From contig DATARE010000591.1 of assembly GCA_036264295.1 (NCBI GenBank), positions 1-44,861 of the forward strand: DNA of 44,861 bases. Reading direction: 5' to 3'. Each line of letters opens with the position of its first letter. Position 1 is the first letter of the stretch. The position numbers and the translations under genes are program-made. Below, piece after piece: positions 22,905-44,330 of the stretch. A model generated the notes under the pieces. The model worked only from the letters and a program-made list of their open reading frames with translations, did no database searches and was not told the origin of the DNA. The stretch comes from Micropepsaceae bacterium. GTDB lineage: Bacteria; Pseudomonadota; Alphaproteobacteria; Micropepsales; Micropepsaceae.

Positions 22905-22919
22905 GAGGCACGTGCGAGA

Positions 22920-24608: not shown

Positions 24609-25132
24609 GTCTATTTCCCCTTAATGGTTGATTCGAATACGGAAGCGAATTGCTCAAACACCACCGCCCAATTCATGCCGGGCACATCTGTCCAAGCGCT
24701 CGACGAGTTCTTCTCGGCGACGTCTCGATCATTGCTGCTCTTCCAACCACGCAATCGACATCCTGCTCGCACAACGAGAGTTGTGCGGATGCTTCTTCAA
24801 AACCGTCTTGAACGCCCCGCCGCCGGAAGAATGGTGGCAAATCATTGCAGCGCCTGAGAGCGAAACAACGATTGGCGCGGACTGTAGGAACCGTCGATGT
24901 TACTTTCGTGACGGATTTATTTTCGTGCGATGAAATCCATTGTCATGAATCTTCAGGATTCACGCGCATTCGTTCCATGCAGAGAACAAGCGGGGCAATC
25001 GACAAACACATTCTCGCCGAGCGGTTGAAAATGCCGTATTCACCGCGCTATACGAAGCTACGGTTTTCAGGCGAGAGGGATCAATTGCGCTGCGAGATTC
25101 AGACGTCCCCGGAGTCGGCTCCCTTTTCTCAT

Positions 25133-28768: not shown

Positions 28769-28775
28769 GTATGGC

Positions 28776-29414: not shown

Positions 29415-29427
29415 GAGCGCATCTCCT

Positions 29428-29991: not shown

Positions 29992-31031
29992 GGCGCCACC
30001 GCTTGCGTCAGCGACACCGAAATCGTGAAGCGTTCGAGATTGCCGTCGTCGCTTCCGACCACGGGCGAGTCGAAGCTCGGCTCACGAAATACCGGCGAAT
30101 GCGCGAACAGTCCGACGAGCTGCGCCGCGGATGGCGACAATCCGCTGATGGTCAACCGATTGCCCCGCAGCGTAAGCGCAGTCAGATAGCTGTCTTCGGG
30201 AAGCGACCGCGTCACGGCTGCAAGCATCGCCAGACCACCGCCGCGCCGGTCATTCGTCTTGAAGAATTCGGCGGTGCGCACAAGCTGATCGGCGGATTGG
30301 CGCAGCGCCGTCGCTTCGTCGGCTTGCGCCTGAAGCGATGCGATCGTCGCGTCGGCCGAGGCAATCTCCCATTCCTGATAGGCGAATGGTGCAACCGCCG
30401 CGATCAGCGCAAACGCGCCCGCCGCCGCGGCGCGTTGAACAAACGGCCATTCGCGTCTGCCGGAAACGCTCGGCGTTTCGCGGGTGAGGGGGACAAGACC
30501 ATGGCCGTGGGCGCCCGAATCCACTTCGACCGCAGCGGGATCGAAGCCCGCCCGGCGCGCCGCTTCGATCACGGAATCGACGCAACGGCGCGGTACCAGA
30601 AGCAGCTCAACCTCAAGCCGCCCGTGCATCGAATCCTGCCGCCGGATGGCGTAGCTCCAGTAAACCTCATCGCGCGCGAATGGCGTCTCGCGGTCAATCT
30701 CGTAGCCCAGCAGATTTTTGAGATCGCGACGCGCCAGGGCCGGAAAAGACAGGCTCTTTCTCAGAACGGAGTCGGGTGGAAGCCGCAGCACTACCAGGGA
30801 AGGAACCGATTTTTCCTCGCGCAGCGCCTGGGCGAGGTCGCGCATGCCCACTTCATCGGCGCTCCCCTGGCCAATCGAGGTCGTGATTCCGCCCGCACGC
30901 ATCAGCAGCGTTGCAGTATCGGTACCGATATCCAGAATAGCCGCGTCAGGCTGACGGCGAGTGCCACGCGTAACGATGTCCGGAAGAAGTCCGGCAAGCT
31001 GACCAAACCACCAGCTGAGAAAAACCCGCAT
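29988..31031 (-). CDS. gspL: Type II secretion protein GspL (PilM-like cytoplasmic domain + TM + PilN-like periplasmic domain)
   Basis: 347 aa. N-terminus MRVFLSWWFGQLAGLLPD, a central TM (AAAAGAFALIAAVAPFAY), and a periplasmic C-domain. Assigned by architecture and operon position. Confidence 0.65.
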   Translation of the reverse strand: MRVFLSWWFGQLAGLLPDIVTRGTRRQPDAAILDIGTDTATLLMRAGGITTSIGQGSADEVGMRDLAQALREEKSVPSLVVLRLPPDSVLRKSLSFPALARRDLKNLLGYEIDRETPFARDEVYWSYAIRRQDSMHGRLEVELLLVPRRCVDSVIEAARRAGFDPAAVEVDSGAHGHGLVPLTRETPSVSGRREWPFVQRAAAAGAFALIAAVAPFAYQEWEIASADATIASLQAQADEATALRQSADQLVRTAEFFKTNDRRGGGLAMLAAVTRSLPEDSYLTALTLRGNRLTISGLSPSAAQLVGLFAHSPVFREPSFDSPVVGSDDGNLERFTISVSLTQAVAP

Positions 31032-31114
31032 AAGCGCTTGCGATCATTTAGAGACGCATTGTGACAACAATATCATTCGGGCCTCTGTAGCGCCAATATA
31101 TGACAGTTCGGCGA

Positions 31115-31696
31115 TCACTTTGTGACAGCCGGAACAAGCTCGATCATTGGCGCGACGAGCAACGGAACCCAGGTTCGGCCATCGTTGAAAACCACGGCGA
31201 CGCGAATGAGTTCGGGCGTCTTCGATTTGTCGGCTGTCACGGGCTGCCACCCTGCCGTCCCCATATAGTAAGAAAGATTCAAGCCAGCCACATCCTTGGC
31301 GAGCTCCGTTCCGCCGCCCGCCGCATCCTTGCTGGGTCCTTTGAAATGGGGACGCCAGCCAAGCTGCAGCCTGTCTCCCGTCCAATGAAGCTCGACATCG
31401 TAAAGACCACCGCGCGCCAGCGCCTGGGGAAGCGCGCTGACAAACCGTAGGGACGTGCTGTCTCCTTCGAACGCCGTTCCCGCGGCGAGGAGATTGCGCA
31501 ATTGGTTCTGCACCGCATCGAGGTCGCCCTGGCGGCTGCTCTGGCGCTCCTGCACCTGCCAAGCCTGTCCGGCGAAACGCACGCCATTGGTAAGTGCCGC
31601 CAAGATCAGCCCAAGGATGGCGATCACGACAAGCAGCTCCAGCAGCGTGAAGCCGCCAATGCGATTCATCCGGCTCTGCTGCTCAGCCATTGCCAT
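31115..31696 (-). CDS. gspJ: Type II secretion minor pseudopilin GspJ
   Basis: Prepilin motif NRIGGFTLLELLVVIAILGLILAAL and ~190 aa, which is GspJ-sized. The start may be ATG 31696 or 31669. Confidence 0.7.
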   Translation of the reverse strand: MAMAEQQSRMNRIGGFTLLELLVVIAILGLILAALTNGVRFAGQAWQVQERQSSRQGDLDAVQNQLRNLLAAGTAFEGDSTSLRFVSALPQALARGGLYDVELHWTGDRLQLGWRPHFKGPSKDAAGGGTELAKDVAGLNLSYYMGTAGWQPVTADKSKTPELIRVAVVFNDGRTWVPLLVAPMIELVPAVTK

Positions 31697-32099
31697 CGGG
31701 AATCGGGCCGAGCCGCTGGGATTGCAGAGAAACGCTCCGGTTGGAGACGCCGCTGCGCCAGGTCAGGACCACATCGACGGTGTAGAGGCCCAAGGGCTTT
31801 TGCATATCCGGCTGGGCTGTCTGGGCATGCAGCACCGGACTGGAAATCCGCACCTGCCAGGAATATCCCGCCCCATCGTCTCCGGATTGGATGCCGGGCC
31901 GCAACGGCGTCAGCGTGCCGATGGCGGCCAGATGGGATTGGGCACGCCGCGTCGCCTCAATATATTGGTCGGCCAAGGCGGCATTCCTCAGCCCCGTACC
32001 GGTGGCAGCCATCAACGCGCCAAGCCCCAACGCAGCAATGGCAAGCGCTACGATCACCTCGATCAGTGTGAAGCCGCTATCCGCGCGGTTTTTCGACAA
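31683..32099 (-). CDS. gspI: Type II secretion minor pseudopilin GspI
   Basis: 138 aa with MSKNRADSGFTLIEVIVALAIAALGLGAL. Size and order (H-I-J) fit GspI. Confidence 0.75.
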   Translation of the reverse strand: MSKNRADSGFTLIEVIVALAIAALGLGALMAATGTGLRNAALADQYIEATRRAQSHLAAIGTLTPLRPGIQSGDDGAGYSWQVRISSPVLHAQTAQPDMQKPLGLYTVDVVLTWRSGVSNRSVSLQSQRLGPIPDGNG

Positions 32100-32538
32100 T
32101 GGACACCCGCCCTGACAACCAGTCGATTCCCACCCACCAGACGCGATTTCCCCCCGTGACCGTCACGCGGCCGCCGCTGCTGCTGCCATCGGGATTGAAA
32201 CGGATTCGACCGACGGCGCCCGAAACAAGCTCGTCCTCGCTGGTGAGCAGCGCGAGGCTGAGATCGTTCGGAAGAATCTGTGCGGGACCAGCGCCGACGC
32301 GATAGAGGCGGCGGGGAAGATCGACCGTCATTTCGACGCTGCGGTTTCCCACCAGCGCTTGGGATCGCGCCGCGCGCATGGCTCCCGAAATGGCTTCCGC
32401 CGCAGCGCGTGCATGGGTGGCGGGCGAAATCGGCGTGCCATTGACGGTGACGAGAACCATCATCAGGCCCATGATCGCGATGACCACGATCATCTCGATC
32501 AAGGTGAAGCCCGCGGCGGGATCAGAGCGCGAGGTCAT
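32077..32538 (-). CDS. gspH: Type II secretion minor pseudopilin GspH
   Basis: 153 aa with DPAAGFTLIEMIVVIAIMGLMMVLV. First pseudopilin after gspF. Confidence 0.75.
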   Translation of the reverse strand: MTSRSDPAAGFTLIEMIVVIAIMGLMMVLVTVNGTPISPATHARAAAEAISGAMRAARSQALVGNRSVEMTVDLPRRLYRVGAGPAQILPNDLSLALLTSEDELVSGAVGRIRFNPDGSSSGGRVTVTGGNRVWWVGIDWLSGRVSIVEKPRG

Positions 32539-33745
32539 TGAGGCTCAACATCGCCACCAGCAGCGATCCCACGATTCCTGCCACAACGAGCCCCATCACG
32601 ATGGTGATGATGGGCACCAACAGAGCCACGATGCGGTTGATCGTGTGGTGCACCTGTTCATCATGGATATCGGCGGCGCGCAACGCCATGTCCGCGAGCT
32701 TGCCGGTTTCTTCCCCCAGCCGAACGAGATGGATCGTCTGAACCGGAAAAAACTCGCCCACCGCAAGGGCGGTGCCCAGACGCGCGCCGGCCTTGACGTC
32801 GGAGGTGGCGCGCTCAACCAGCTTTGCCGCGGTAAGGTTTCCCAGCACGTCATGCGCGATGGCCAGCGCCGGCACCAATCCGACTCCGTTGCGCAGCAGC
32901 GTCCCAAGCGTGCGGGTGAGCCTTGCCGCCTGCACCCGCCGGATCAGCGGCCCCACGATAGGGATATGCAGAATCGCGCGCTCGGCGGCCATGCGCGCCG
33001 AGGGCTCACGCAACGCGCGAATGGCAACCAAGCCGATACCAAGAAAAGCGATGAGAATCAGCAATCCGTCGTCGCGCACAAAATCGCCGGCGCCGATGAG
33101 CACGCGCGTGGCCGTGGGCAATTGCGCGCCGGCCTGCGCGAAAATGGGCGTGAACTGCGGCAGGACATAGGTGAGGAGCAGCACAATAGTGCCCAACGCC
33201 GCCGTTATCAGAAGCGCAGGGTATACGAGCGCGGATTGCACGGATGCGGCCAGACGGCTCTCGCGCTCCAGAAGGTCGGCAAGATGGGCGAGGCTCTCCG
33301 CCAGCTTGCCGCCCGCCTCACCGGCACGCACCAGACTGACATAGAGACGTGAAAACACCTTTGGATGTTCGGCAAGGCTGACCGCCAAGGATTTTCCACC
33401 GCGCACTGAATCGCGCAGCGCCTGCAAAATGCGCGTGGCGCGTTTGCTGTCGCTGGTTTCTACCAGAAAGCGCAACGCGTGATCGATGTCCTGGCCGGCT
33501 TCCAGCATCACCGACAATTCACGGGTGAAGTGCGCGATCACCGTCTTTGGCAAACCGCGATAGAATTCGAGATCGGCGTTGAGGAATTCGGCGAAGCGGC
33601 CGCCCGTCCCGACTTCATCGGTGCGCAGCAGGAGATAGCTTTGGCGGTGGAGGCGATCTGCCACCGCCGCCGCATTCGCCGCCTCGATGACGCCGTTCAG
33701 GCGCTTGCCCGCCGTATCGACCGCGCTGTAACGAAACTTCGGCAC
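32522..33745 (-). CDS. gspF: Type II secretion inner-membrane platform protein GspF
   Basis: 407 aa with the duplicated T2SSF domain architecture and three TM segments. N-terminus MPKFRYSAVDTAGKRLNGVIEA is typical of GspF/PilC. Confidence 0.95.
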   Translation of the reverse strand: MPKFRYSAVDTAGKRLNGVIEAANAAAVADRLHRQSYLLLRTDEVGTGGRFAEFLNADLEFYRGLPKTVIAHFTRELSVMLEAGQDIDHALRFLVETSDSKRATRILQALRDSVRGGKSLAVSLAEHPKVFSRLYVSLVRAGEAGGKLAESLAHLADLLERESRLAASVQSALVYPALLITAALGTIVLLLTYVLPQFTPIFAQAGAQLPTATRVLIGAGDFVRDDGLLILIAFLGIGLVAIRALREPSARMAAERAILHIPIVGPLIRRVQAARLTRTLGTLLRNGVGLVPALAIAHDVLGNLTAAKLVERATSDVKAGARLGTALAVGEFFPVQTIHLVRLGEETGKLADMALRAADIHDEQVHHTINRIVALLVPIITIVMGLVVAGIVGSLLVAMLSLNDLAL

Positions 33746-33748
33746 GTT

Positions 33749-35485
33749 CTACCCTTCGAGACGGATGCTTCGCAGAATCTCGCTCAGCGAGGTGGTTCCC
33801 GCGATCACCTGACGCAAACCGTTTTCGTACATGCTCCGCATGCCCGACGCGCAGGCGGCATTGTGAATTTCGGCGTGACCGGCGCGGCCAAGAATTAGCC
33901 GATGCGTGGTCTCGTCGGGCGCCAAAAGCTCGGCAATCGCCAAGCGGCCCGTGTAGCCGGTGTTGCGGCAGGACAGACAGCCACCAGGCTCATACAGCAC
34001 AAGCGGTCCAGCCCCGCAAAAGCGTTCGAGATCGAACCGCGCAATCAGTTCCGGGCTTGCCGGCACCGCGCGTTTGCAATCCCGGCAAAGACGGCGCACC
34101 AGCCGCTGCGCCATGATGCCGTTCAGCGTTGCGGTCAGAAGGTAATCTTCCAATCCCATATCGCGCAGCCGCGCAATCGTGGCCGCCGCGCTGTTGGTGT
34201 GCAGCGTCGACAGCACCAAATGGCCGGTGAGCGCGGCTTGCACAGCGATTTGCGCCGTTTCGAGATCGCGGATTTCGCCGATCATAATGATGTCTGGATC
34301 ATGGCGCAGGATCGTGCGCAACAGGCTCGCGAAATTGAGGCCGATTTGCGGTTTCACCTGAATCTGGGTGATGCCCGGAAGCTGATATTCGATGGGGTCT
34401 TCCACCGTGATGATATTGCGGTCGCAGGAATTGAGGTGAAGCAGTCCGGTATAAAGCGTCGTGGTCTTGCCGCTGCCCGTCGGGCCGGTGACCAGGATGA
34501 TGCCATTGGGCAATTCCAGCAGCCGGCAAAAATGCTTGCGCACCTCCTCGTCCATGCCCAATTGCACGAAATCCAGATTGACCGCCGAACGGTCCAGGAT
34601 ACGCAAGACCACGCTTTCGCCATGGAGCGAAGGTATCGTCGAGACGCGCAGATCGATTTCGTGCCCGCGCACCACCAGCTTGATGCGGCCGTCCTGGGGC
34701 AGACGCCGCTCGGCGATATCGAGCATGGCCATGATTTTGATGCGGGACACGACCGCCGCCTGCAGCCGGCGCGGCGGCGATTCCATTTCGTGCAGGACGC
34801 CGTCATAGCGGTAGCGCACGCGCAAGCGATCCTCGAACGGATCGATGTGGATATCTGAGGCGCGGGTTTCGACGGCATGCGAAATCAATTGATTGACGAG
34901 GCGGATCAGCGGCGCGTCGTTCGCCAGGTCCTTTAGACGCTCGGCATCGTCGTCGTTCGCTGCACCTGCCGCGGACACCAATTCATCCATTTCCGCATAG
35001 CCGGGCGATTCTTCCTCGCGGTACAAACGGTCGAGCGCGGCCTCCAGATCGATAGGAAATGCGACACGGATTTCGACATGCCGCGCGGCGGCGATCCCTA
35101 TCGCCGACACCGCGAAACTGTCCAGCGGATCGGCCATCGCCACGGTGATGGTGCGATCATCGACAGCAATCGGAATGGCCCGCGATTTGCGCAGGAATTT
35201 AAGACGCAGACGGTCCGGCAGCAGCGCCGTCTTCGGATAATCGGATGCGGCTGCGATTTTAAGCCCCAGAAGCTTGGCTGTTGCCTCCGCGAGCAACCTT
35301 TCGCTGATCAACCCAAGCTGCGTGAGGACAATATCCAGGCGCGTGCCGCTTTCGTCCGCCAAACGCTGGCCGCGTTCGAGGCTTTTCCCGTCCAACTGGC
35401 CTTCGGCGGTCAGCAGTTGACCGAGCGCCGCGGTGAAGCCGTCCGGCGACCACAAACCCTGCAGGGGACTTACTGTGGCCAGCAT
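33749..35485 (-). CDS. gspE: Type II secretion ATPase GspE
   Basis: 578 aa with Walker A VTGPTGSGKTTTLY, Asp box and Walker B (IIMIGEIRD), His box (GHLVLSTLHTN), the tetracysteine motif (CRDC...CLSC), and an N-terminal T2SSE_N-like domain. Confidence 0.95.
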   Translation of the reverse strand: MLATVSPLQGLWSPDGFTAALGQLLTAEGQLDGKSLERGQRLADESGTRLDIVLTQLGLISERLLAEATAKLLGLKIAAASDYPKTALLPDRLRLKFLRKSRAIPIAVDDRTITVAMADPLDSFAVSAIGIAAARHVEIRVAFPIDLEAALDRLYREEESPGYAEMDELVSAAGAANDDDAERLKDLANDAPLIRLVNQLISHAVETRASDIHIDPFEDRLRVRYRYDGVLHEMESPPRRLQAAVVSRIKIMAMLDIAERRLPQDGRIKLVVRGHEIDLRVSTIPSLHGESVVLRILDRSAVNLDFVQLGMDEEVRKHFCRLLELPNGIILVTGPTGSGKTTTLYTGLLHLNSCDRNIITVEDPIEYQLPGITQIQVKPQIGLNFASLLRTILRHDPDIIMIGEIRDLETAQIAVQAALTGHLVLSTLHTNSAAATIARLRDMGLEDYLLTATLNGIMAQRLVRRLCRDCKRAVPASPELIARFDLERFCGAGPLVLYEPGGCLSCRNTGYTGRLAIAELLAPDETTHRLILGRAGHAEIHNAACASGMRSMYENGLRQVIAGTTSLSEILRSIRLEG

Positions 35486-35516: not shown

Positions 35517-36482
35517 TCATGGTGCGCTTTCGAACATTTTCCGCAAGTCCGCTTCGTTGACTGCGACCGGATTCTTCTCGAGCAGCTTGGTCACATAGCC
35601 CTGTTGGCTGTCCTTGGATTTTCGCTGGCGCAGCATGACGGCAAGCGACTCTTTCACCTCGGCTAGCGGCCGCGGCGCTGCCGGTTTGGTGGCGACGAGG
35701 CGCACAATGTGCCAACCCGCGGCCGTTCGAATGGGGTCGCTGATCTCGCCCACAGCCATGCCCACGATTTCCTTGCGGATTTCCGGAGCAATCTGCTCAC
35801 TTGCTGCCCAGCCCAGATCGCCGCCTTGAGCTGCGCTGGATTTGTGCTCGGAGCGGGCCCGCGCGACATCCTCGAATTTGACATTCACGGCCTTTGCTTG
35901 GCGAGCCAGATCGTCGGCCTTTTTCTTTGCGGCTTCTTCTGTCTTCTTGTTTGCTCCTTTCGGAGAGGCGAAAAAGATCTGCGCCAAGCGAAACTGGCGC
36001 GGCGCCATGAAATTGTCGCGGTTCAGATCATAGGCGGTTTGGATATCGGCCGCCGACGGATAGTCCTTGGGAAGCGTCGAAACGGACGCAAGATAAGAAT
36101 TCACGATCACATCGTCGCGCGCGCGCTCGATCTGTCGCGCCACATCGGGGCGAAGCTGCCAATTCTTGGCGCGCGCCTCATTCAGCACGGCAATGCGTGC
36201 GAGCTCAAGACCGATCAGCTTGTTCATCGTTTGCGGATCAGCTATCGCCTTCTTGCGCAATTCCGGATCCAGCAGGCGAACGAAATTGGCCAAATCGGCG
36301 GCATGGAATTCGGTGCTGCCAAGACGCGCGATGACTGTAGGATCGCTATCGGCGGCCCTTGCCTGCGAAGCCCCAAAGCAGCAGGAGCATATGAATGCGC
36401 CAAGCAGACAGAGAATCGCCAGCTTGGCCGGATAAAACCATGGATCGGAGTGCCTTGCTTCCATGAGGCATTCCTTCATCAT
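35517..36482 (-). CDS. Periplasmic parvulin-type peptidyl-prolyl isomerase (PpiC/SurA-like)
   Basis: 321 aa with a signal peptide/anchor (LAILCLLGAFICSCCFGASQARA) and a SurA-N-like helical region. The PpiC domain reads SSAAQGGDLGWAASEQIAPEIRKEIVGMAVGEISDPIRTAAGWHIVRL. Confidence 0.85.
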   Translation of the reverse strand: MMKECLMEARHSDPWFYPAKLAILCLLGAFICSCCFGASQARAADSDPTVIARLGSTEFHAADLANFVRLLDPELRKKAIADPQTMNKLIGLELARIAVLNEARAKNWQLRPDVARQIERARDDVIVNSYLASVSTLPKDYPSAADIQTAYDLNRDNFMAPRQFRLAQIFFASPKGANKKTEEAAKKKADDLARQAKAVNVKFEDVARARSEHKSSAAQGGDLGWAASEQIAPEIRKEIVGMAVGEISDPIRTAAGWHIVRLVATKPAAPRPLAEVKESLAVMLRQRKSKDSQQGYVTKLLEKNPVAVNEADLRKMFESAP

Positions 36483-37192
36483 CCCGCCGGACGCGCAATC
36501 ATGTTGGCACGCAATTTGTCTTCGTAGTCCTGCATCAGGTTTTCGATCTCGACACGCTTCAGCTTCGTGAAAGGTTCTTTGGCGCCAAGGGCTCCAAACA
36601 CATCCTGCCGGCCGTAGACGTCGATGAGGTCCTTGCCGAATTTGTACAGCTCCGTGTTCTTGGCTTCACAGGCCGTAGCGCGGGTGCGCGTCTGCACCAG
36701 CAACTCGTCGAGCTTCTTGGCATCGTCGTCGCGCATGCGTGCCGCCGCAGCGGCCTCGTTATAGGAGGTTTGCCATTTCGCCAGATTGTCGCGATAGGCG
36801 GCTTCCATCGAAGCGAGCCCTTGTTTTTGCGCTTCGAGCTGAGCGGCGCTTTGTCTGGCGGCCGTCTGCAAAGCATCCTGGCCTGCCTTGAGCTGCTGAC
36901 GGAGCGCGTCGCGCTCTTTCTCCGCTGCGGCGAGTTGCTGTGTCAACGCCATGCGATCCCGTTCGGCTTCCGATTGTTTGGCGGTCAGCATCGCATTCTG
37001 GTCTTGCAGATCGCGAAGCTGCACGGTGGCGGACCGAAACGCGGCACGCAGCCGGGCCGCGCCATCGTCGCCTTCAGGCGCGGCAGCCGCCAATCCGCAA
37101 ATGCCGCACACCGCAATCGTCCCGGCCGCAAAAGCGCGGCGCCATTCAAAATTGCGCATGGACATCCACCCATAGCGTTTCGACATCGTCAC
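36479..37192 (-). CDS. Secreted coiled-coil protein of unknown function
   Basis: 237 aa. The GTG start overlaps the tonB TGA (GTGA) and the stop overlaps the PPIase ATG (ATGA). Signal peptide (AAGTIAVCGICGLAAAAP), then ~130 aa of heptad-like Q/A/E/L/R-rich sequence (LRDLQDQNAMLTAKQSEAERDRMALTQQLAAAEKERDALRQQLKAGQDALQ...) and a short globular end. Coding status is supported by the coupling and by sequence composition. Confidence 0.5.
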   Translation of the reverse strand: MTMSKRYGWMSMRNFEWRRAFAAGTIAVCGICGLAAAAPEGDDGAARLRAAFRSATVQLRDLQDQNAMLTAKQSEAERDRMALTQQLAAAEKERDALRQQLKAGQDALQTAARQSAAQLEAQKQGLASMEAAYRDNLAKWQTSYNEAAAAARMRDDDAKKLDELLVQTRTRATACEAKNTELYKFGKDLIDVYGRQDVFGALGAKEPFTKLKRVEIENLMQDYEDKLRANMIARPAG

Positions 37193-37893
37193 CCCACACC
37201 CGGCAAGGCGCCGACGCGCACGATCACGGGCTGCGGCATTTCCTTGGGCGGCGATTCCGGCAGCGGCGGCATGGTGCCGATGGCTTGTTCGATCAGCGTG
37301 TCAATCTGCGTATCGCCGGTCGTGCGCAGCACCTGAACTTTGTCCACCTTGCCAATCGAGGACAGCCACACGCGGATTGTGGCGCGGAACTTGTTGGAGT
37401 TCAGTTTTTCGTCGTCGCGCAAGCGCTTGCTGATCTGATCCTGCATCAGCGAAGCGTAATGGCCAAAGCCATTGCCGCCGGTCCCGCCTCCGCCTCCGCC
37501 AATCGTCTGACCGAGCTGCAGCGCCTGGCCCCCCGGCTTGGCGCCAAGGCCGAAGGCATCGCTCCCGGCGCTGCCCTGCGCGTCCAGCGCAAGCGGGGCA
37601 TCGGGCGGCGGTGCGTCGTCTTTGGGTTTGTCATCCGGCGTGGGTGGCGGCTCGATCTTCTGCTCCACCATTTTGGGCGGCGGTGGCGGCGGTTCTTCCT
37701 TGGGCGGCGGCGGTGGCGGCGGCGGGACCAGCTTCAACGCCATCACTTCGGCGACACGCTTTTTCGGACCGGCATCGCCATTGACCACGCGATAAACGCC
37801 ATAGCTCGCGGCGAGGAAGACGAGCACAACCGCGCTTGCGACCATATAGCGGCGCCATTTTTCGCCGCTTTTGGATTCCGGCTCCAGCATCAT
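37189..37893 (-). CDS. tonB: TonB-family energy transducer
   Basis: 234 aa with an N-terminal TM (YMVASAVVLVFLAASYGVY), the Pro-rich spacer PPPPPPPPKEEPPPPPPKMVEQKIEPPPTPDDKPKDDAPPPDAP, and a TonB_C-like end (RATIRVWLSSIGKVDKVQVLRTTGDTQIDTLIEQAI). Confidence 0.8.
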   Translation of the reverse strand: MMLEPESKSGEKWRRYMVASAVVLVFLAASYGVYRVVNGDAGPKKRVAEVMALKLVPPPPPPPPKEEPPPPPPKMVEQKIEPPPTPDDKPKDDAPPPDAPLALDAQGSAGSDAFGLGAKPGGQALQLGQTIGGGGGGTGGNGFGHYASLMQDQISKRLRDDEKLNSNKFRATIRVWLSSIGKVDKVQVLRTTGDTQIDTLIEQAIGTMPPLPESPPKEMPQPVIVRVGALPGVG

Positions 37894-38294
37894 TTCACGA
37901 GTCTCTGCGTCACGAGTCCCAACTGCGTGATGTCGTGCCTGCCCATCATCGCCAGCACGTCGATGACCACCTTATATTGCACGTCGCCGTCGCCCTTGAT
38001 GACATAAGGCGTTTCCGGATCGACCGATTTCTGCTGCACCAGCCGCTGCTCCAGCTCGTCCATCGTGACGGGATAGGTATCGAGAAAAATTTTCCCGTCA
38101 TTGGTGATGGTGATGGCCTTGGTTTTCGGCTTGGCGAGACTGGGTGTGTCGCTCGCCTTGGGCAGATTGACCTTGATGCCCTGAACCGAGGCCGTCGTCA
38201 TGATGATAAAGATAACAAGCAGCACATAGGCCAGATCGAGCATCGGCGTGACGTTGATGTCGTCATAGGCTTTGGCGTCGGCTTGGGCTTTCAT
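37890..38294 (-). CDS. exbD: ExbD/TolR biopolymer transport protein
   Basis: ORF 37890..38351. ATG 38294 lies 4 nt after the exbB stop. INVTPMLDLAYVLLVIFIIMTT and the periplasmic domain are typical of ExbD. Confidence 0.9.
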   Translation of the reverse strand: MKAQADAKAYDDINVTPMLDLAYVLLVIFIIMTTASVQGIKVNLPKASDTPSLAKPKTKAITITNDGKIFLDTYPVTMDELEQRLVQQKSVDPETPYVIKGDGDVQYKVVIDVLAMMGRHDITQLGLVTQRLVK

Positions 38295-38298
38295 GGCG

Positions 38299-40128
38299 TC
38301 ATTCCGCCGCCAAGCGCGGCGCCTCAGCCTCCGGCGAATAGACCTCGGCAAGGCGCGTGACGAATTCGTCGATAAAGGCGTGCAGTTCGGTGGTCACGTC
38401 TTTGATGCGCGTGATCAAATAATTGTAGCCGAACAGCGCCGGAATCGCGACTGCAAGACCGGCAACGGTGGCCACAAGCGCCGCTGCAATTCCCGGCGCG
38501 ATGGCGTTGATGTTCACGTCTCCGCTCGCAGCAATCGCGGCAAAGGTAATCATCACGCCCACAACGGTGCCGAGCAGACCCAGAAACGGTCCGCCCGAGA
38601 TCGCAATCGTCAGCAGCACCATCATCGAGTTCAGGCGTTGCCCTTCATAGGCGGCAATCCGATCGAGATTGGCGCGAATGGTGGCAATGGCTTGCGGCGT
38701 CAGCACCTTTGGCCCATGGGGGGCCGTTCCGAAACGCCGCTGGAGCTCGGCCTGCCCCGCATCGCAAATGCGATACAGCACAGAATTGCCGATCCCGCGG
38801 GTTTTGCTGTTGGCAAGCTCGGCCGCCAGCCGCATCGGATCGCCGCCGGCCCGCGTGAAGATTTCGAGGAACCGCGAATTGGCACCCGCCACCTTGGCGA
38901 TGTAACGGGCCTTGCTCACCATCACGATGACGCTGATGGCCGCCATCACCATCAGAATGCCAATCACGACCCAGCCATCGATCGTCACCGAGCGCAGGAT
39001 CACGCCAAAATAACCGCCGCTCCAGCCGGCGTTTTCTTCATCCTGGCCATAGGCGATCATGGGGCCGTTTTCGGCCTGGCTCGCATAGGCAGCGGAAATG
39101 AACGAGGCGCTGCGGGCGGTCTTGGCCAGCTCAAGTTCGTCAAGATCGCCGGCAAATCCATTGCCAACGGCCGTTGCGGCGCGAGCTGCCTGTCCCGCGG
39201 GGGCGGGCGCAGGCATCACGTTGTCGCCGCCGACCGAACCCGCCCCGGCCAGAGCAGGCAAACTCGCTGCAATCGTGGCGGCCTGCTTGCCATCGACATA
39301 CAACGTCAACCGGTCCGATACCGAAACCGCGATCTGGTGCCAGGTTGCCGGCGAAATCGGCGCAGCTGCCGCAGCCCGTGCAGTATTCGCGCCGTTGACG
39401 ACGCTTGCATAGGGCGTGCCCTGGTCGATTCCGATGACGAGCGCATTCGCGCCGTCGCGTTTGGCGAACAGAACCGATTGCGTCTGAACCGCATCGGGCT
39501 TCACCCATGCCGACCAGGTGAAGCCGCCGCCCGGCGCGATGGCCAGCGATGGCGATGCCGGCAAGGCCAGTGGATTGGTGCCGTCGAAATGGATGCCACG
39601 GCCGATGATCGACGTGTCGACCGACTTCACGGGTGCCTGTGCCGCGTTGTTGTAAGCCGTCTGATCGCGCGGCGCCGCATTGGGCTCGCCGAAATGATAG
39701 ACCAGCGTCGTATCGTTGTCGTAGGTGCCGCGCGGATCGGCCCCAGCCGGCGCTTTGGTGTTGCCGTAATAGAGATAGATTTCTGTCGTGCCGCCCGCTT
39801 TGACGGCAGGCACATCCACCCAGACCAGCGCGATGCCGAGCAAACCGTCATAGGTATCGATGTGGAATTTCAGCGGCGTCTTGTCGTCGCCGGCGACAAA
39901 GCGAAGGTCGCTGCCATCGTCCTTGGCATCGCTGAACTTGAAATTGCCGTCATGCAGCCGAACCAGAACAGGCGCCCGCGCCAGATCTTCGGCAATACCG
40001 CCGCCCTGCGGTCCGCCATTCAGCGTGATCTTCTTGCGATAAGACCAATCATCGCTCCACCAGGCTTTGGCGCTGTGCGGAACCAGAAGCGCGGCCAAGA
40101 CAAGCAGGCAAAGCATTCGTCTGAACAT
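38299..40128 (-). CDS. exbB: DUF2341 + LamG (concanavalin-like) periplasmic module fused to a MotA/TolQ/ExbB proton channel
   Basis: ORF 38299..40179. ATG 40128 has GAGG 6 nt upstream. Signal peptide MFRRMLCLLVLAALLVPHSAKA. DUF2341 pattern WWSDDWSYRKKITLN...APVLVRLH...GSDLRFV...ALVWVDVP...IYLYYGN. LamG-like block FTWSAWVKPD...WHQIAVSV..RLTLYVDGK. The C-terminal ~230 aa carry 3 TM and the ExbB signature (GPFLGLLGTVVGVMITF...IAPGIAAALVATVAGLAVAIPAL). Confidence 0.85.
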   Translation of the reverse strand: MFRRMLCLLVLAALLVPHSAKAWWSDDWSYRKKITLNGGPQGGGIAEDLARAPVLVRLHDGNFKFSDAKDDGSDLRFVAGDDKTPLKFHIDTYDGLLGIALVWVDVPAVKAGGTTEIYLYYGNTKAPAGADPRGTYDNDTTLVYHFGEPNAAPRDQTAYNNAAQAPVKSVDTSIIGRGIHFDGTNPLALPASPSLAIAPGGGFTWSAWVKPDAVQTQSVLFAKRDGANALVIGIDQGTPYASVVNGANTARAAAAAPISPATWHQIAVSVSDRLTLYVDGKQAATIAASLPALAGAGSVGGDNVMPAPAPAGQAARAATAVGNGFAGDLDELELAKTARSASFISAAYASQAENGPMIAYGQDEENAGWSGGYFGVILRSVTIDGWVVIGILMVMAAISVIVMVSKARYIAKVAGANSRFLEIFTRAGGDPMRLAAELANSKTRGIGNSVLYRICDAGQAELQRRFGTAPHGPKVLTPQAIATIRANLDRIAAYEGQRLNSMMVLLTIAISGGPFLGLLGTVVGVMITFAAIAASGDVNINAIAPGIAAALVATVAGLAVAIPALFGYNYLITRIKDVTTELHAFIDEFVTRLAEVYSPEAEAPRLAAE

Positions 40129-40163
40129 GGGTAGCCTCAGCTGTGATCCGGCCGTCGTCATCG

Positions 40164-41900
40164 CTAAAACCCCGACCAAAGGCGAAAATGGACACGCGTT
40201 TCACTCATCCGGGTCACGGCTCCATCAACCATAGCCACGGCCACATCGGCGGCGCCGTTGAGGCTGTCGAAGGCGCTGAACCGTGCACCTATGCCCGCGC
40301 TGGCCAGCGAGAACGAACGCTTCTCGCTGGGCAGCGGCTGATGAATCCAGAGCGCACCGCCATCCACGAAAGTGAGGAAATGCAAATCGGTCACGGCGGA
40401 CGACACCGCCTTTCCGAACGAGGGCGTGCGGAATTCAATGGTTCCCATGGTGCCGTAATCGCCAAGCCGCTCGGCTTCCAGGTAACCGCGTACGCTGTTG
40501 GCGCCGCCGGCGCTCAATTGCTCGCTGCTGAGCAAGGGATCGTTCGTCATCTGTGCCTGAATGCGCCCGAAGATGCTGTAGCCATTGCCCATCGGTTGCT
40601 GCCGGCTGACATCGAACTTGGCGTAGACATATTGCCGAAGGGCGCCGAACCGTTGGGTATCGAGTTTTTCGCTGTCGCTTCCTGCAGGCAGCGCGAAATT
40701 GAGTGAACCGCCCGCTTTGGTAATGAGATCGCCGTCCTGCCATGTCGCCGAATAGGCGAGCGATGCGGGATAATACAGAACCGTCGAATTTGCCGGCGTG
40801 CCCGAAGTGATCACGTTCTGGGTGAGATTCTTGCGGTCGATGCCGACCGTGAACGAGTGATAGAAATTCTCACTGGCGGGCAGATTCACGATGCCGCGCA
40901 GGCCGAAGATCGTACCCCGGCCCACCACATCGGTGCCGGCAAGCGCTGCCACATCGCTGTCGGATTTCACGCCATAGGCGAGCACGCTCAGCGGCGTGCC
41001 TTCCACCGGCCACAGATAGTTCGCGGAATAGACCTGCGCGTCCGACGTCTTCTGAGGCGCCACCTGATAGGACAGGCTGAGACTGTGGCCTTCCTGCCAG
41101 AGGTTGTCGTAGCTGACCGTGCCGGCAACGCGCAAAGGCTCGGTTTTTTGATTGTACTGATTGTTGATTTCGATATTGCCGTGCACCGGCAGCTTGTCTT
41201 CGACTTCGAGATCGACATCCACGGTGCCCGGCGCCTGGCCTGCCTTCAGGCGCGGCGTCACCTTCAGATCGGGCTGGCGGTTGAGCGCGACAATGTCGTT
41301 TTGCACCGCAGTGCTGTTGGTCACGGTGCCTTCGGCAAGGGAAGGCGCGGTTTCCCGGATGCCGGTCAGCGAGTGGAATTTGGATCCGACCACGCGCAAG
41401 CGCCCGACAGGATTTTCCACCACCTGCAGATGGATGACGGTGCTTTCGACACCCTGTTCGGGAATGAGCACCTGAACCGTCTGAAAGCCGCGCATCTGAT
41501 AGGTTTTTTCGAGCGCCTCGCGGGCCATATCGACATCGGTGGCATTTCTCTGCTCGCCGAGAAACGGATAAACCGCTTCTTCAATGGCGGGCGTATCCAG
41601 CACGGTGTTGCCGTCCACGACATATTCGAAGATGTCGAAGCGCTGCGCCGCCTGATTGGGATTCGCGTCATTCTGGGCAGCAGGCTGGGCGGCAGGCGCG
41701 ACCATTCCCGCCTGCCCCGAAGCGGCAGATGCATTCTGCGCCATCGCCGAAGGCGCGCCGGCACAAAGCCCCGCGCCCAGCGCGATCATGAGCCGCTGCA
41801 CAATTGCCGATGCGTAAGACAAAACCCCTCCACCCCGGAAAGGCCAAACAGGCTGTTCCGGTGCGTCTACCTTTTGCGTATTCAATTCGGGAAGGCTCAC
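40164..41900 (-). CDS. TpsB outer-membrane transporter (ShlB/FhaC/HecB family, Omp85 superfamily)
   Basis: 578-aa ORF from GTG 41900. A more likely start is GTG 41825 or 41801, which gives the signal peptide (M)QRLMIALGAGLCAGAPSAMA. POTRA region FDIFEYVVDGNTVL...VYPFLGE...DVDMAREALEKTYQMRGFQTVQVLIPEQ...VIHLQVVENPVGRLRV, and a 16-strand-type barrel with GGANSVRGY and a terminal aromatic (LWSGF). Confidence 0.9.
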   Translation of the reverse strand: MSLPELNTQKVDAPEQPVWPFRGGGVLSYASAIVQRLMIALGAGLCAGAPSAMAQNASAASGQAGMVAPAAQPAAQNDANPNQAAQRFDIFEYVVDGNTVLDTPAIEEAVYPFLGEQRNATDVDMAREALEKTYQMRGFQTVQVLIPEQGVESTVIHLQVVENPVGRLRVVGSKFHSLTGIRETAPSLAEGTVTNSTAVQNDIVALNRQPDLKVTPRLKAGQAPGTVDVDLEVEDKLPVHGNIEINNQYNQKTEPLRVAGTVSYDNLWQEGHSLSLSYQVAPQKTSDAQVYSANYLWPVEGTPLSVLAYGVKSDSDVAALAGTDVVGRGTIFGLRGIVNLPASENFYHSFTVGIDRKNLTQNVITSGTPANSTVLYYPASLAYSATWQDGDLITKAGGSLNFALPAGSDSEKLDTQRFGALRQYVYAKFDVSRQQPMGNGYSIFGRIQAQMTNDPLLSSEQLSAGGANSVRGYLEAERLGDYGTMGTIEFRTPSFGKAVSSAVTDLHFLTFVDGGALWIHQPLPSEKRSFSLASAGIGARFSAFDSLNGAADVAVAMVDGAVTRMSETRVHFRLWSGF

Positions 41901-41999: not shown

Positions 42000-42356
42000 T
42001 CAGCGCGACGGCGGGCCACCGACGGGATTGACGAAAGTACGGGCCGGCGGACGCTGCGGTACCGGAGATACGCCATAGGCATTGCCCATATGCTCCCGGG
42101 CGGCGGCATCGTTGAACGTGCCCACCTGGTTGGATGACGAGTGCGCGTCAATAGGTGCGGCGATTTGCGGCGTGCTGCGCTCGTGCTCGACCCGGCGCTG
42201 CATCTCGTCATTGAGACAATTGAGATAGGCCGTGCGGTCATTGCCGATCTGCACGTCCACGCAAGGTCGTTTGTCATTGGAAGCCGGCGCATCGGCACCT
42301 TGCGCCTGCGCCGCAATCAAGAGGGTTGCAACTATCGCAAAGGGTGCAAAACGCAT
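42000..42356 (-). CDS. Small secreted protein, unknown function (118 aa)
   Basis: ORF 42000..42368. ATG 42356 lies 4 nt after the gspO stop. Clean Sec signal MRFAPFAIVATLLIAAQAQGA. The mature part has one Cys pair (KRPCVDVQIGNDRTAYLNCLN) and a Pro-rich tail. No family recognised. Confidence 0.45.
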   Translation of the reverse strand: MRFAPFAIVATLLIAAQAQGADAPASNDKRPCVDVQIGNDRTAYLNCLNDEMQRRVEHERSTPQIAAPIDAHSSSNQVGTFNDAAAREHMGNAYGVSPVPQRPPARTFVNPVGGPPSR

Positions 42357-42360
42357 CGCA

Positions 42361-43113
42361 TCACCCAATTGTCAGCGGCCCATAGAGCCACACGATCCAC
42401 GTGCTAAGACAAAGGAAAGTCCCAAATGGCACGCGGTTCGTTAAAGACAGTGTACCACCGCGCGTTCGCTCGACCAAAGCAAAGGCAAGACCGGCCAGGG
42501 CGCCGATCAGGATCACGCTGGGCAGGCCATTCCATGACAGCCAGGCGCCGCTCGCTGCCAGAAGCTTGGCGTCGCCCAGCCCCATGCCCTCGCGCCGGCG
42601 CCAGTGCCAATAGACATAGCGAAGTGCCACGACAAAGCCGTAGGCCAGGACGGCACCAATCACATTGGGCAACAGCGCCGGTGGATTGAGAATCCACGCC
42701 ACCAACAGCCCTGCCGGAACGAGCGGCAATGTCAGGAAATCCGGAAGCAGGAAATATTTGAGATCGGTTGTGGCGAGCGCCAGAAGCGCCCAACCGAAAC
42801 CGCAGCTCACCCACAGAAGCCCGTCCGAAAACAAGGAGGCGGACCACAGCGCGATGCCAAGAGCGCCCAGTTCAATCAGCGGATAGAAGGCACCGATGGG
42901 TTGCGTGCAAAAGCGGCAGCGTCCACGCAGAAGCACCCAACTCATGACGGGTACGAGGTCGCCTGCGGCAATGCGTGTTCCGCAGCAGGCGCAAACCGAA
43001 CGGCCGAACACGATGGCGCGCGGGGATTCGACCCGGGTCACGATCACGCCGAGAAAGCTGCCGATGAAAGGGGCCAAAAGAACCGGCCAAATCCAGGAGC
43101 CGAGCCCGATCAA
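42361..43113 (-). CDS. gspO: Prepilin peptidase / N-methyltransferase (A24 family, GspO/PilD)
   Basis: ORF 42361..43443, but the first ~110 codons are Arg-rich and overlap the GT4 gene. TTG 43113..43111 overlaps the GT4 TGA (TTGA) and yields (M)IGLGSWIWPVLLAPFIGSFLGVIVTR. It has the Zn-finger DiS-P-DiS motif CACCG...CRFC and the catalytic Asp motif GMGLGDAKLLAASGAWL. Confidence 0.85.
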   Translation of the reverse strand: MIGLGSWIWPVLLAPFIGSFLGVIVTRVESPRAIVFGRSVCACCGTRIAAGDLVPVMSWVLLRGRCRFCTQPIGAFYPLIELGALGIALWSASLFSDGLLWVSCGFGWALLALATTDLKYFLLPDFLTLPLVPAGLLVAWILNPPALLPNVIGAVLAYGFVVALRYVYWHWRRREGMGLGDAKLLAASGAWLSWNGLPSVILIGALAGLAFALVERTRGGTLSLTNRVPFGTFLCLSTWIVWLYGPLTIG

Positions 43114-44330
43114 TTCCGTTCCGCTCCCTGCCCCGCGGCCGGCTGCAATGTCGCGCCACGCCGAAGACGCTGATTGCGGCGGGCGGCATGAACATCCCTC
43201 GCGCCGTCCAACGCCCGGGCCAGCCGTGCCGCATTGGCCGAAAGGCTGTATTCGGTTTCGAAAATGACACGAGCGACCGCCGAATCTTGCGCAGCTTTCG
43301 CGGGATTGTCGAGCACGTCGTGAACCGCGGCGCGAAAGGCGCGCGCGGTGTCGGCAACATGAAACGTGCCGCCATGAACGATGCCTTCGCAGCCTTTTGA
43401 CGTGCTCACGACCGGCGTACGAGTCGCCATGGCCTCCACGCATTTGAGCCGGGTGCCACCGCCCTGCCAGAGCGGTACGATCGCACAGCGCGATCCCCCC
43501 ATCTCGCTCAACAAATCGTCACGCGCCCCCAACCCGGTAATTCCCGGCACGTCGGAAAATTCCGCAACCGCGCGATCCGACAATTTGCCCGCGACGCAGA
43601 GAGCCGTGCGCGCGTTCAGGCTTTCATCCCAGACATGGCGCACGAACCAGCGCAAGCCTTCGACATTCTGAAAATTTCCGAAGCTGCCGGTCATGATGAT
43701 GCGGTTTTCGCACGCCCTATCTCGATACACGTCCGGGATATCGACGAAATTCGGCACCATGTGCAAACGGCCAGCATCGAGGAATCGCGCATAGGCGCGG
43801 CGGTCTTCCTCCGAGACGCAGAGCACCGCATCGGCAGAACCGAAAAACAGCCTCTCATGCATCAATTCCAACCCGTGGCGCAGATGAATGGCAGCCCTGG
43901 CTGAGAGCGAGTCCTTCTTCACCTGGGCGGTGAGAGCCGATTCCAAATTGTGGGTACCCAAGATGATCGGAACATCCAGTTCTCGCAAGGCCGCGATCTG
44001 TGCACCCATAAAGCCGTAATCCAGCACGATGGCGCTGAACGGTTCGGCCCGATGCAATGCTTTCACCTGTTCGACGAATTTTCCATGCTTGCGAAAATAA
44101 ACGCTCGCAGATTGCCGCAGACGCGGCCACGCGAATGGGATGGGACGGAAGCGGACATCCTCGCGATTCTGCGCGGCCATATCCACATTTTCGTGATTTC
44201 CGACGATCGCTTCAATCTTAAAACCGAGCGCGCGAAAACCGGCGATCAGGTTCAAGGCGCGAATACGTTCCCCGGAATGCGGCGGAAACGGGCTGATATA
44301 GCTGGCATAAAGGATCGTTCCCGCGAACAC
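43110..44330 (-). CDS. Glycosyltransferase, GT-B fold, family 4
   Basis: 406 aa. N-terminus ILYASYISPFPPHSGERIRALNLI and a C-terminal nucleotide-sugar binding half (PLWQGGGTRLKCVEAMATRTPVVSTSKGCEGI). Confidence 0.8.
   Translation of the reverse strand: MFAGTILYASYISPFPPHSGERIRALNLIAGFRALGFKIEAIVGNHENVDMAAQNREDVRFRPIPFAWPRLRQSASVYFRKHGKFVEQVKALHRAEPFSAIVLDYGFMGAQIAALRELDVPIILGTHNLESALTAQVKKDSLSARAAIHLRHGLELMHERLFFGSADAVLCVSEEDRRAYARFLDAGRLHMVPNFVDIPDVYRDRACENRIIMTGSFGNFQNVEGLRWFVRHVWDESLNARTALCVAGKLSDRAVAEFSDVPGITGLGARDDLLSEMGGSRCAIVPLWQGGGTRLKCVEAMATRTPVVSTSKGCEGIVHGGTFHVADTARAFRAAVHDVLDNPAKAAQDSAVARVIFETEYSLSANAARLARALDGARDVHAARRNQRLRRGATLQPAAGQGAERN

Follow-up and report, generated by a model that had tools for sequence, protein, structure and literature searches.

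A tpsB gene followed by a Tol/Ton-like motor in a Micropepsaceae island: a probable counterpart of the Pseudomonas aeruginosa pdtB-exbB2-exbD2-tonB4 locus

Introduction

Two-partner secretion (TPS) systems pair a TpsA exoprotein with a TpsB transporter. Their genes are usually adjacent, and type V secretion is considered to need no energy source (PMC5422565); a sequence-only reading of the DNA described here had correctly taken both points as its background. That DNA is a 44,861-nt stretch from a Micropepsaceae bacterium (contig DATARE010000591.1 of assembly GCA_036264295.1), referred to below as the window, in which tpsB is followed by genes for a motor of the TonB-ExbB-ExbD type. The tpsB-exbB-exbD-tonB array of the window is very probably the alphaproteobacterial (Micropepsaceae-like) counterpart of pdtB-exbB2-exbD2-tonB4(-PA0696-PA0699) of Pseudomonas aeruginosa and part of a widely conserved island. 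The island contains a PdtA-type TpsA with its TpsB, a Tol/Ton-like motor with a lectin-like ExbB, a coiled-coil protein and a parvulin chaperone. To this identity, combined with a role of the motor as an accessory of the TPS system, we assign a probability of roughly 0.4 as the best overall explanation.

The closest described relative is the PUMA3/Pho locus of P. aeruginosa. It comprises the hxc genes of a type II secretion system (T2SS; PA0677-87), lapA/lapB (PA0688-89), pdtA (PA0690), phdA, pdtB (PA0692), exbB2-exbD2-tonB4 (PA0693-95), a porin gene (PA0696), PA0697, a YbjN gene (PA0698) and a peptidyl-prolyl isomerase (PPIase) gene (PA0699) (PMC2729926, PMC4971064, PMC7035377). phdA, pdtB, exbB2D2, tonB4 and PA0696-0701 form one transcript from PphdA (PMC4971064). 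LapA and LapB are substrates of the neighbouring Hxc T2SS. The locus belongs to the VreI and PhoB regulon, and limitation for inorganic phosphate (Pi) induces it at both the RNA and the protein level (PMC7035377, PMC9769906). In 2009, Llamas et al. described PUMA3 clusters in several genera that are tied to TPS genes, exbBD and PA0696 homologues (PMC2729926). The TonB system of the locus was still called "uncharacterized" in 2020 (PMC7035377), and we found no later mechanistic work on the P. aeruginosa motor in the literature. Among publications on DUF3739 or on tpsB together with exbB, only the 2009 P. aeruginosa paper proved relevant, and the main TPS review does not mention a TonB link (PMC5422565). 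A paper on a Sphingobium "exbB2" concerns tolQ and is unrelated. The gene association is therefore one that is already described and has been functionally unexplained since 2009, and the window adds a new alphaproteobacterial member to it. The finding is of value for the breadth of the linkage, a porin-less variant interleaved with T2SS genes, and a C-terminal strand of TpsA as a testable handle.

Related arrangements are known from other systems. In P. fluorescens SBW25, an eleven-gene Hxc T2SS is followed by psp, which encodes a PstS-like DING protein secreted by Hxc, and then by the gene for a 4083-aa haemagglutinin, Pflu2428 (PMC2225411). In the HxuA/HxuB/HxuC system of Haemophilus influenzae, the TpsA captures a ligand for a TonB-dependent importer (PMC5422565, PMC4873976). 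Hxu is the only well-understood case that ties TPS genetically and functionally to TonB-dependent energy. The Tol system is a motor of this kind used for something other than import, and in Bordetella the parvulin chaperone Par27 acts on the filamentous haemagglutinin FHA.

Type V secretion is defined as lacking an inner-membrane energy source, and no natural setting is better suited to the search for an exception than a motor genetically bound to tpsB across dozens of genera. If true, an energised TPS would be the first case of inner-membrane energy input into a type V secretion system. The system is also present in a tractable pathogen, P. aeruginosa (PdtAB/ExbB2D2/TonB4), where it is induced by phosphate starvation.

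Results and discussion

Organization of the tpsB-motor array

All tpsB, motor and tpsA elements lie on the minus strand of the window, with the following open reading frames (ORFs) and features:

40164..41900, minus strand: TpsB, maximal ORF (Pfam POTRA_2 and ShlB)
38299..40128, minus strand: DUF2341-LamG-ExbB/TolQ fusion (Pfam domains)
37890..38294, minus strand: ExbD/TolR-type subunit (Pfam ExbD, 1.5e-27)
37189..37893, minus strand: TonB/TolA-like periplasm-spanning protein (Pfam TonB_2)
36479..37192, minus strand: secreted coiled-coil protein at the position of PA0697 (conserved position)
35517..36482, minus strand: periplasmic parvulin-type PPIase/chaperone at the position of PA0699 (Rotamase, Rotamase_2 and Rotamase_3)
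10598..22720, minus strand: giant PdtA-type TpsA, start at 22678 or 22720 (Pfam TPS and DUF3739)
10637..10669, minus strand: strand-like motif SLITVEVLGFG near the C-terminus of TpsA (conservation in TpsA C-termini)

The tpsB stop codon (TAG, 40166-40164) lies 35 nt from the ATG of the exbB fusion at 40128, which is preceded by GAGG at a distance of 6 nt, just as the sequence-only reading had described. The true start of tpsB is likely the TTG at 41822, 4 nt after a GGAGG, or the ATG at 41789. Spacing further along the array is equally tight: only 4 nt separate the exbB stop from the start of exbD, the TonB-like gene shares 4 nt with the end of exbD, and the TonB-like and coiled-coil genes overlap each other by 4 nt. 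The encoded TpsA of about 4026-4040 aa has an N-terminal TPS domain (4e-20) and a C-terminal DUF3739 domain (1.6e-32). Pfam and NCBIfam scans, which included opposite-strand and flanking ORFs, revealed no second TPS gene, ShlB gene or plug-type TonB-dependent receptor (Plug, TonB_dep_Rec) among the other large ORFs of the window. The claim that the window's only TpsA-type gene starts 17.4 kb from the tpsB stop, downstream of a terminator, was likewise borne out.

The published PA0690-PA0699 order (PMC7035377) is matched by that of P. paraeruginosa ATCC 9027 (L021; related loci are numbered in this way), where the TpsA C-terminal region, TpsB, the fusion, ExbD, TonB, Porin_5, the coiled-coil protein, YbjN and the PPIase follow one another. 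Window proteins share with their L021 counterparts 41% identity for TpsB, 43% for ExbB (full length), 51% for ExbD, 31% for the coiled-coil protein and 29% for the PPIase. Like the P. aeruginosa locus, the window has tpsB followed by a DUF2341-ExbB fusion, ExbD, a TonB-like protein, a PA0697-like protein and a PpiC-type PPIase. It also has a giant TpsA with a DUF3739 C-terminus, whose homologous region lies directly upstream of tpsB in L021, and it combines a T2SS and a PstS/DING-like exoprotein in one island. Unlike in P. aeruginosa, the T2SS of the window is placed between the tpsB-motor block and tpsA, which forms a separate downstream unit, whereas tpsA is upstream of tpsB in Pseudomonas. 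The window further differs in that it is devoid of a PA0696-type porin, YbjN, phdA and vreAIR, in that gspO and a small secreted ORF precede tpsB, and in that no Pho box stands out above chance. The three-part logic of SBW25 recurs in the window, where a T2SS is combined with a DING-like protein of 562 aa, whose N-terminus reads GGG[AS]TL, and with a TpsA of ~4030 aa. The window protein, however, is ~180 aa longer than DING, and the SBW25 paper (PMC2225411) is silent on tpsB-motor genes.

Conservation of the tpsB-exbB linkage

We scanned one genome per species, which returned 80 loci; upstream counts below refer to the 75 related loci whose upstream sequence extends to 2 kb or more, and downstream counts to the 62 with at least 6 kb. 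The ExbB fusion family comprises 1032 representative clusters at E <= 1e-30. Its nearest members are found in metagenome-assembled genomes (MAGs) of Micropepsaceae and Rhizomicrobium (up to 84% identity), followed by Bradyrhizobium and Rhodopseudomonas. The sequence-only reading had proposed a functional coupling of the TPS pair with the ExbB-ExbD-TonB module, and the linkage is indeed conserved in relatives: tpsB lies directly upstream of the fusion on the same strand in 57/75 loci and the 3' end of tpsA does so in 12/75, such that exbB is coupled to one or the other in 69/75. A TPS gene of some kind is present in 73/75 loci, and the median gap between the tpsB stop and the exbB start is 18 nt (59 loci). 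Downstream, ExbD is present in all 62 loci, Porin_5 in 61/62 and the coiled-coil protein at the same position in 49/62. BLAST detected the TonB-like gene in 47/62; most of the cases it missed still have an ORF with a transmembrane helix, a poly-Pro stretch and a conserved C-terminus, and equivalents occur in nearly all loci.

The scan covers many Pseudomonas, Stenotrophomonas, Burkholderiales, Bradyrhizobium, sphingomonads, Methylococcales, Verrucomicrobiota and a Nitrospirota MAG. The tpsB-exbB linkage is thus conserved across Alpha-, Beta- and Gammaproteobacteria, Verrucomicrobiota and the Nitrospirota MAG, that is, three phyla. Six alphaproteobacterial contexts, among them Rhodopseudomonas palustris BisB18, share the order tpsB, fusion, ExbD, TonB-like gene, Porin_5, coiled-coil gene, PPIase, (GspG), PstS-like gene and tpsA with TPS and DUF3739 domains. 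L006 and L007 are the closest relatives, and L005 keeps only gspO and gspG around the block. TpsA orthologues with TPS and DUF3739 domains adjoin the tpsB-motor block in L001, L003, L004 and L005. In L003, L004 and L005, which have no T2SS block in between, the tpsB-motor operon is only a few kb from a tpsA of the same type. The long distance in the window is therefore real, but it is not the sign of an unusual pairing that the sequence-only reading had seen in it, since it arises from the T2SS block that sits between tpsB and tpsA in this lineage.

These data bear directly on whether the two genes are linked in function at all. If tpsB and the exbB fusion were neighbours by chance or through a recent rearrangement, the window would hold a classical, energy-independent TpsB/TpsA pair; a strong terminator precedes tpsA, which has a promoter region of its own, and classical TPS systems need two genes only (PMC5422565). 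Such an explanation is scarcely credible given a linkage kept across three phyla at so short a median gap, the TPS gene near almost every member of the fusion family, and co-transcription in P. aeruginosa (PMC4971064). Protein identities of 35-68% across classes also speak against one recently spread mobile element. The conservation data consequently led us to reject chance adjacency.

Further loci, from Burkholderia, Cupriavidus, Ralstonia, Variovorax, Methylomagnum and Klebsiella, came from a search of plasmids; the Cupriavidus block has a full T2SS beside it, which contains a nuclease gene. On the clinical Klebsiella pneumoniae IncFIB/IncHI1B plasmid NZ_CP065459.1 (L008, 2100-12400), we observed a decaying copy of the entire block. 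Its tpsB and PPIase genes are frameshifted; the genes for the motor, porin, YbjN and LysR have stayed intact and are ordered as in PA0693-PA0701. A Methylomagnum ishizawai plasmid (L009/L010) carries a scattered set with the PstS-like gene, tpsB and tpsA together and the motor 17 kb off. Between these genes lie PhoX, a further alkaline phosphatase, phoU and a putative porin, and their presence strengthens the link to phosphate.

TpsB and the C-terminus of TpsA

The product of 40164..41900 is, as predicted from its domains and structural model, a type Vb Omp85 transporter of the FhaC/ShlB/CdiB class. Pfam scores are 3.2e-13 for POTRA_2 and 3e-19 for ShlB. The AlphaFold2 (AF2) model, with a predicted local distance difference test (pLDDT) score of 81, shows two POTRA domains and a beta-barrel (strands not counted explicitly) behind an N-terminal stretch of ~39 disordered residues, and its best structural matches in the PDB (Foldseek) are CdiB (6wim) and FhaC (4ql0). 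R430, G431 and Y432 are invariant in 41 homologues, in the context SVRGYLE; we take them to be the VRGY/F motif of loop L6 in TpsB/Omp85 proteins, a loop assignment that comes from knowledge of the family and not from the model. The signal peptide is followed by ~25-35 non-conserved residues rich in Ala, Pro and Gln, which have a pLDDT below 50 and no helix, and then by POTRA1. Like Bordetella FhaB/FhaC, the window system combines two POTRA domains and a beta-barrel, the RGY motif, an N-terminal TPS domain, and a parvulin beside a giant beta-helical exoprotein. Unlike in Bordetella, where fhaB and fhaC are adjacent and no motor genes accompany them, TpsB of the window has no helix H1. This helix plugs the barrel in the FhaC and CdiB structures and is not a universal defining feature of TpsB, so that membership in the family stands.

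The motif SLITVEVLGFG occurs once in the window TpsA and is followed by a C-x7-C pair. In the fetched loci, 34 C-termini of PdtA-type TpsA proteins can be seen, and all of them bear the consensus [ST]V[EQD]V[LIV]G[FYL]G at or close to the extreme end; in six, it is the very last part of the protein (the motif is seen in L001, L004, L008-L010 and L014-L091). It resembles a TonB box, which we regard as a lead to a possible role as a binding strand. The conserved C-terminal strand of the cargo could in that case be the handle of the motor.

A Tol/Ton-like motor with a lectin-like domain

The ExbB fusion is a 609-aa protein with a signal peptide, a DUF2341 domain (2.1e-17), a Laminin_G_3 domain (1.5e-16) and a C-terminal MotA_ExbB domain (1.9e-25). 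Its AF2 model (pLDDT 80) consists of the signal-peptide helix, an all-beta domain (30-365) and three long helices, and Foldseek matches it to TolQ/ExbB chains (target-normalised template-modelling scores 0.73-0.81) and to LamG/LNS domains. The periplasmic lectin-like (LamG/LNS) domain accounts for ~340 all-beta residues. Elsewhere, giant proteins of 4700-7900 aa (P0241, P0242, P0243, P0245, P0259 and others) contain as many as 21 repeats of the DUF2341-LamG unit, which marks it as a mobile binding module that is not motor-specific.

NCBIfam scores of the fusion are 124.5 bits for TolQ and 69.3 bits for ExbB, and the ExbD-like subunit scores 91.8 bits for TolR. By family score, the channel and ExbD-like subunits are nearer to TolQ/TolR than to ExbB/ExbD; because all of these scores fall below the equivalog cutoffs, the motor is a distinct subfamily. 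Alignment with E. coli ExbD (6tyi) revealed that the transmembrane Asp equivalent to D25 is conserved, and the motor therefore looks functional. The TonB-like protein has an N-terminal transmembrane helix, a poly-Pro spacer and a TonB_2 C-terminal domain (32.5 bits, cutoff 22), as well as a weak TolA_C match; a PDB sequence search with it gave nothing significant. All parts of a TonB-ExbB-ExbD motor are thus present: the three-helix channel, the ExbD Asp, and a TonB with transmembrane anchor, Pro-rich spacer and C-domain.

The resemblance to Tol-Pal consists in TolQ/TolR as the nearest named families by score, TolQ chains among the best structural matches, and the weak TolA_C match. Unlike Tol-Pal, the array has no TolB, Pal or YbgC, its scores are well below equivalog, and its ExbB/TolQ carries the large periplasmic domain that TolQ lacks. 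Canonical TonB uptake differs as well: the large ORFs of the window include no outer-membrane partner with a plug or TonB box, and such a partner could lie outside the window.

The PA0696-type porin and a possible role in uptake

In the window (junction 37189-37192) and in two loci from Micropepsaceae MAGs, L007 and L041, the PA0696-type porin has been cleanly lost from its place between the tonB-like and coiled-coil genes; a relative with 80% identity, L006, keeps Porin_5. No match in the window was obtained by tblastn with four Porin_5 queries. In related loci (L012-L091; for example L021, 13173-14783), PA0696-type porins have a conserved N-terminal periplasmic extension of ~120 aa before the barrel. 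This extension consists of a helix (nLI..LV..GvL....A..Li.qAe.eA) and a segment G.VRV.YVP..V..qIRd, and the TonB-like protein may dock there.

The near-universal porin, directly after the TonB-like gene in the loci that have it, is one argument for a reading in which the motor powers import by way of the PA0696-type porin in the outer membrane, with the extension, which contains the strand motif G.VRV.YVP, acting as a TonB-gated plug. The cargo would be phosphorus compounds or a loaded DING/LapA-like protein, and the TPS fibre and T2SS would supply extracellular factors for capture and hydrolysis; for the window, this supposes either a porin gene at another place or loss of the function. We consider this reading rather unlikely, although several lines of evidence fit it. 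Import is the canonical role of TonB systems, and Hxu offers a precedent for a TPS pair that feeds a TonB-dependent receptor (PMC5422565, PMC4873976). A DING/LapA-like gene lies beside tpsA in the window and its relatives; PhoX, alkaline phosphatases and phoU occur in the Methylomagnum locus, and the nuclease gene in the Cupriavidus T2SS block. The P. aeruginosa locus responds to Pi limitation in RNA and protein (PMC7035377, PMC9769906), and Psp/DING has been proposed to be an extracellular phosphate scavenger (PMC2225411). If uptake were the true function, the locus would represent a new phosphate-scavenging pathway that combines a T2SS, a TPS and a Ton-like importer.

Against this stands the intact motor that the window, L007 and L041 keep coupled to tpsB without the porin, and in 69/75 loci the partner to which exbB is coupled is tpsB or tpsA and not the porin. 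The window has no plug-type TonB-dependent transporter. A search for the Pho-box pattern CTGTCAT-N4-CTGTCAT with up to 3 mismatches gave 4 matches in the window versus 2.4 expected, none of them at a promoter. The parallel with Hxu is limited too. A receptor gene of the Hxu type in the tps operon is absent from the window, and relatives carry Porin_5 instead; where Hxu relies on the general TonB system, the window couples motor genes of its own to tpsB, and its TpsA is four times larger.

The regulation of the P. aeruginosa locus bears on a further explanation, in which the motor energises surface signalling of the PUMA3 type (VreA-VreI-VreR) that controls tpsA, T2SS and phosphatase genes and moves no protein or nutrient. 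The locus is a regulon of the extracytoplasmic function (ECF) sigma factor VreI, and VreA combines a TonB-box-like segment with a C-domain that resembles TolA/TonB (PMC2729926). In 12/75 loci, an ECF sigma gene is located no more than 10 kb from the motor, and in R. palustris one stands directly upstream of tpsB. Most loci, however, have none within that distance, and none was detected in the window: tblastn with the R. palustris ECF sigma factor gave no match, and the scanned ORFs included no ECF sigma factor. A tblastn search of the window for YbjN was negative too. A signalling role would also leave the large lectin-like ExbB domain unexplained, and the coupling is tight to tpsB and not to regulators. 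We consider it highly improbable.

A motor acting on the TPS side

The window shows a motor kept with the TPS genes even after porin loss. Because the window, L007 and L041 keep tpsB, the motor, the coiled-coil protein, the PPIase and tpsA but not the porin, we tentatively favour a motor that is an accessory of the TPS system, acting on the periplasmic side of TpsA/TpsB and controlling holding, anchoring or release; this component of our explanation is possible but less likely than not. Further grounds for it are the coupling of exbB to tpsB, the parvulin in the operon, which fits the Par27/FHA precedent, and the C-terminal motif of TpsA. The analysis shows gene content, order, coupling and conservation, the domain structures and an intact motor signature in the Asp of ExbD, whereas every physical interaction and the direction in which energy is used are inferred.

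In the accessory model, the motor would be made together with TpsB, tpsB and exbB being translationally coupled, and would serve as a trans-envelope accessory of TPS and not as a general nutrient-uptake TonB system. The channel, presumably ExbB5-ExbD2, would turn proton flow into force on the TonB-like protein, which in turn would bind strand-like segments, similar to a TonB box, in partner proteins that the cluster itself encodes. The best candidate partner here would be the C-terminal ...TVEVLGFG... of TpsA, a part that we assume leaves the periplasm last, and the N-terminal extension of the PA0696-type porin would be a second candidate in most relatives. The motor could then control a late step, the holding, anchoring or releasing of the giant exoprotein at TpsB, and the parvulin might keep the 4000-residue chain secretion-competent. 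A bolder version envisages an energised type Vb subclass, in which the TonB-like arm of the motor grips the C-terminal strand of TpsA (and the porin extension where present) and the proton-motive force controls anchoring, release or retraction of the ~4000-residue fibre. This version is decidedly unlikely.

Several points weigh against the accessory model. No experiment ties exbB2, exbD2 or tonB4 to PdtA secretion. Transposon mutants of P. aeruginosa in tonB4 (PA0695), PA0696, tpsA and tpsB were unchanged in zebrafish virulence, a result that says nothing about secretion (PMC2729926), and the general view is that type V secretion works without energy input (PMC5422565). The near-universal porin with its conserved N-terminal extension fits an uptake or gated-channel role equally well, and a porin gene may exist elsewhere in the genome, our view being the 44.9 kb window. 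The TpsA motif could equally be a docking strand for POTRA domains or the barrel, its likeness to a TonB box being a resemblance only. In TpsB itself, the alignment of 41 homologues and the AF2 model reveal no conserved TonB box or plug at the N-terminus, and the plug helix H1 is neither predicted nor conserved. The idea of such a box or plug, entertained in the sequence-only reading, has to be dropped, as the segment is a short, non-conserved and disordered linker. The suggestion that TpsB serves additional cargo found no support either.

Surroundings of the array in the window

The sequence-only reading had left out the T2SS array that intervenes between tpsB and tpsA, as well as gspO and the small secreted ORF upstream of tpsB. 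These and the remaining features are:

42361..43443, minus strand: prepilin peptidase of GspO type, maximal ORF (Pfam A24_N_bact, 6e-22; Peptidase_A24, 5.4e-20)
42000..42356, minus strand: small secreted ORF of 118 aa between gspO and tpsB (direct sequence reading)
25575..35485, minus strand: T2SS block (Pfam and NCBIfam matches)
24845..25585, plus strand: major pseudopilin GspG (T2SSG, 1e-32; N_methyl)
22920..24608, minus strand: DING/LapA-like secreted homologue of phosphate-binding proteins, 562 aa (PBP_like_2)
22852..22906, minus strand: intrinsic terminator (folding energy versus shuffles, and U-run)

The 17.4 kb between tpsB and tpsA are occupied by a tightly packed same-strand array and then by the divergent GspG/DING-like pair; tpsB thus sits inside a T2SS-containing array that ends at tpsA. 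After the motor, the order is coiled-coil gene, PPIase, GspE, F, H, I, J, L, M, C, D and K, and from the TonB-like gene onward through the array, genes overlap or are separated by gaps of mostly <=35 nt. The coiled-coil protein (36479..37192) has no Pfam family, and a PDB sequence search with it gave nothing significant; the PPIase is weakly similar to SurA/PpiD/PrsA.

The block encodes a complete T2SS. Its GspE bears an MshEN domain and is joined by F, H and a further pair of pseudopilins, by L-like and C-like proteins, and by M, the secretin D and K. GspD scores 435 bits against a cutoff of 351, and GspE (33749-35485, minus strand) scores 623.8 against a GspE equivalog cutoff of 630. The MshEN domain at the N-terminus of GspE is of the type that acts as a cyclic di-GMP receptor in MSHA pilus ATPases. 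The block is inserted after the PPIase in L006, L007 and L041 as well. As to a distinction between hxc-type and Xcp-type T2SS, the Pseudomonas hxc genes lie outside the fetched flanks of the loci compared.

GspG probably starts near 25150, and in L005 it stands beside the PstS-like gene in the same orientation. The DING-like protein has weak PstS matches, and its PDB sequence matches are PstS, DING and a "putative alkaline phosphatase". With 562 aa, it exceeds PstS or DING by ~180 aa. After maturation its N-terminus reads ATTPIYGGGSTLAELYY, which is similar to the DINGGGATL signature of DING proteins and to VTGGG in LapA (PMC2225411), and the protein is a probable T2SS substrate. The window shows that T2SS and DING-like genes travel with the motor in Alphaproteobacteria too. 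Downstream of the DING-like gene and upstream of tpsA, the terminator at 22852-22906 has a 21-bp stem and a U-run, with a folding free energy (dG) of -42.2 kcal/mol (z = -8.7 versus shuffles). A sigma-70 promoter scan of the 22-42 kb region yielded 9 sites versus 5.3 expected, none of them convincing upstream of tpsB or tpsA.

The true start of gspO is probably near 43110, and its position upstream of tpsB is kept in L005, L007 and L041. The 118-aa secreted ORF (42000..42356) has no Pfam or NCBIfam match; counterparts with 45-58% identity occupy the same position in L005, L006 and L007, and the protein between gspO and tpsB is also kept in L041. The island is flanked by genes for family 4 glycosyltransferases (GT4), a Wzc-like chain-length/tyrosine-kinase gene and a radical SAM gene (1755-3125, 43110-44330, 5871-8237). 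A sulfotransferase gene (9720-10634, minus strand) overlaps the tpsA stop and directly trails it, and sulfotransferase genes are also found near the cluster in L007 and L058. A possible role of these genes is the modification of TpsA or of a co-produced exopolysaccharide.

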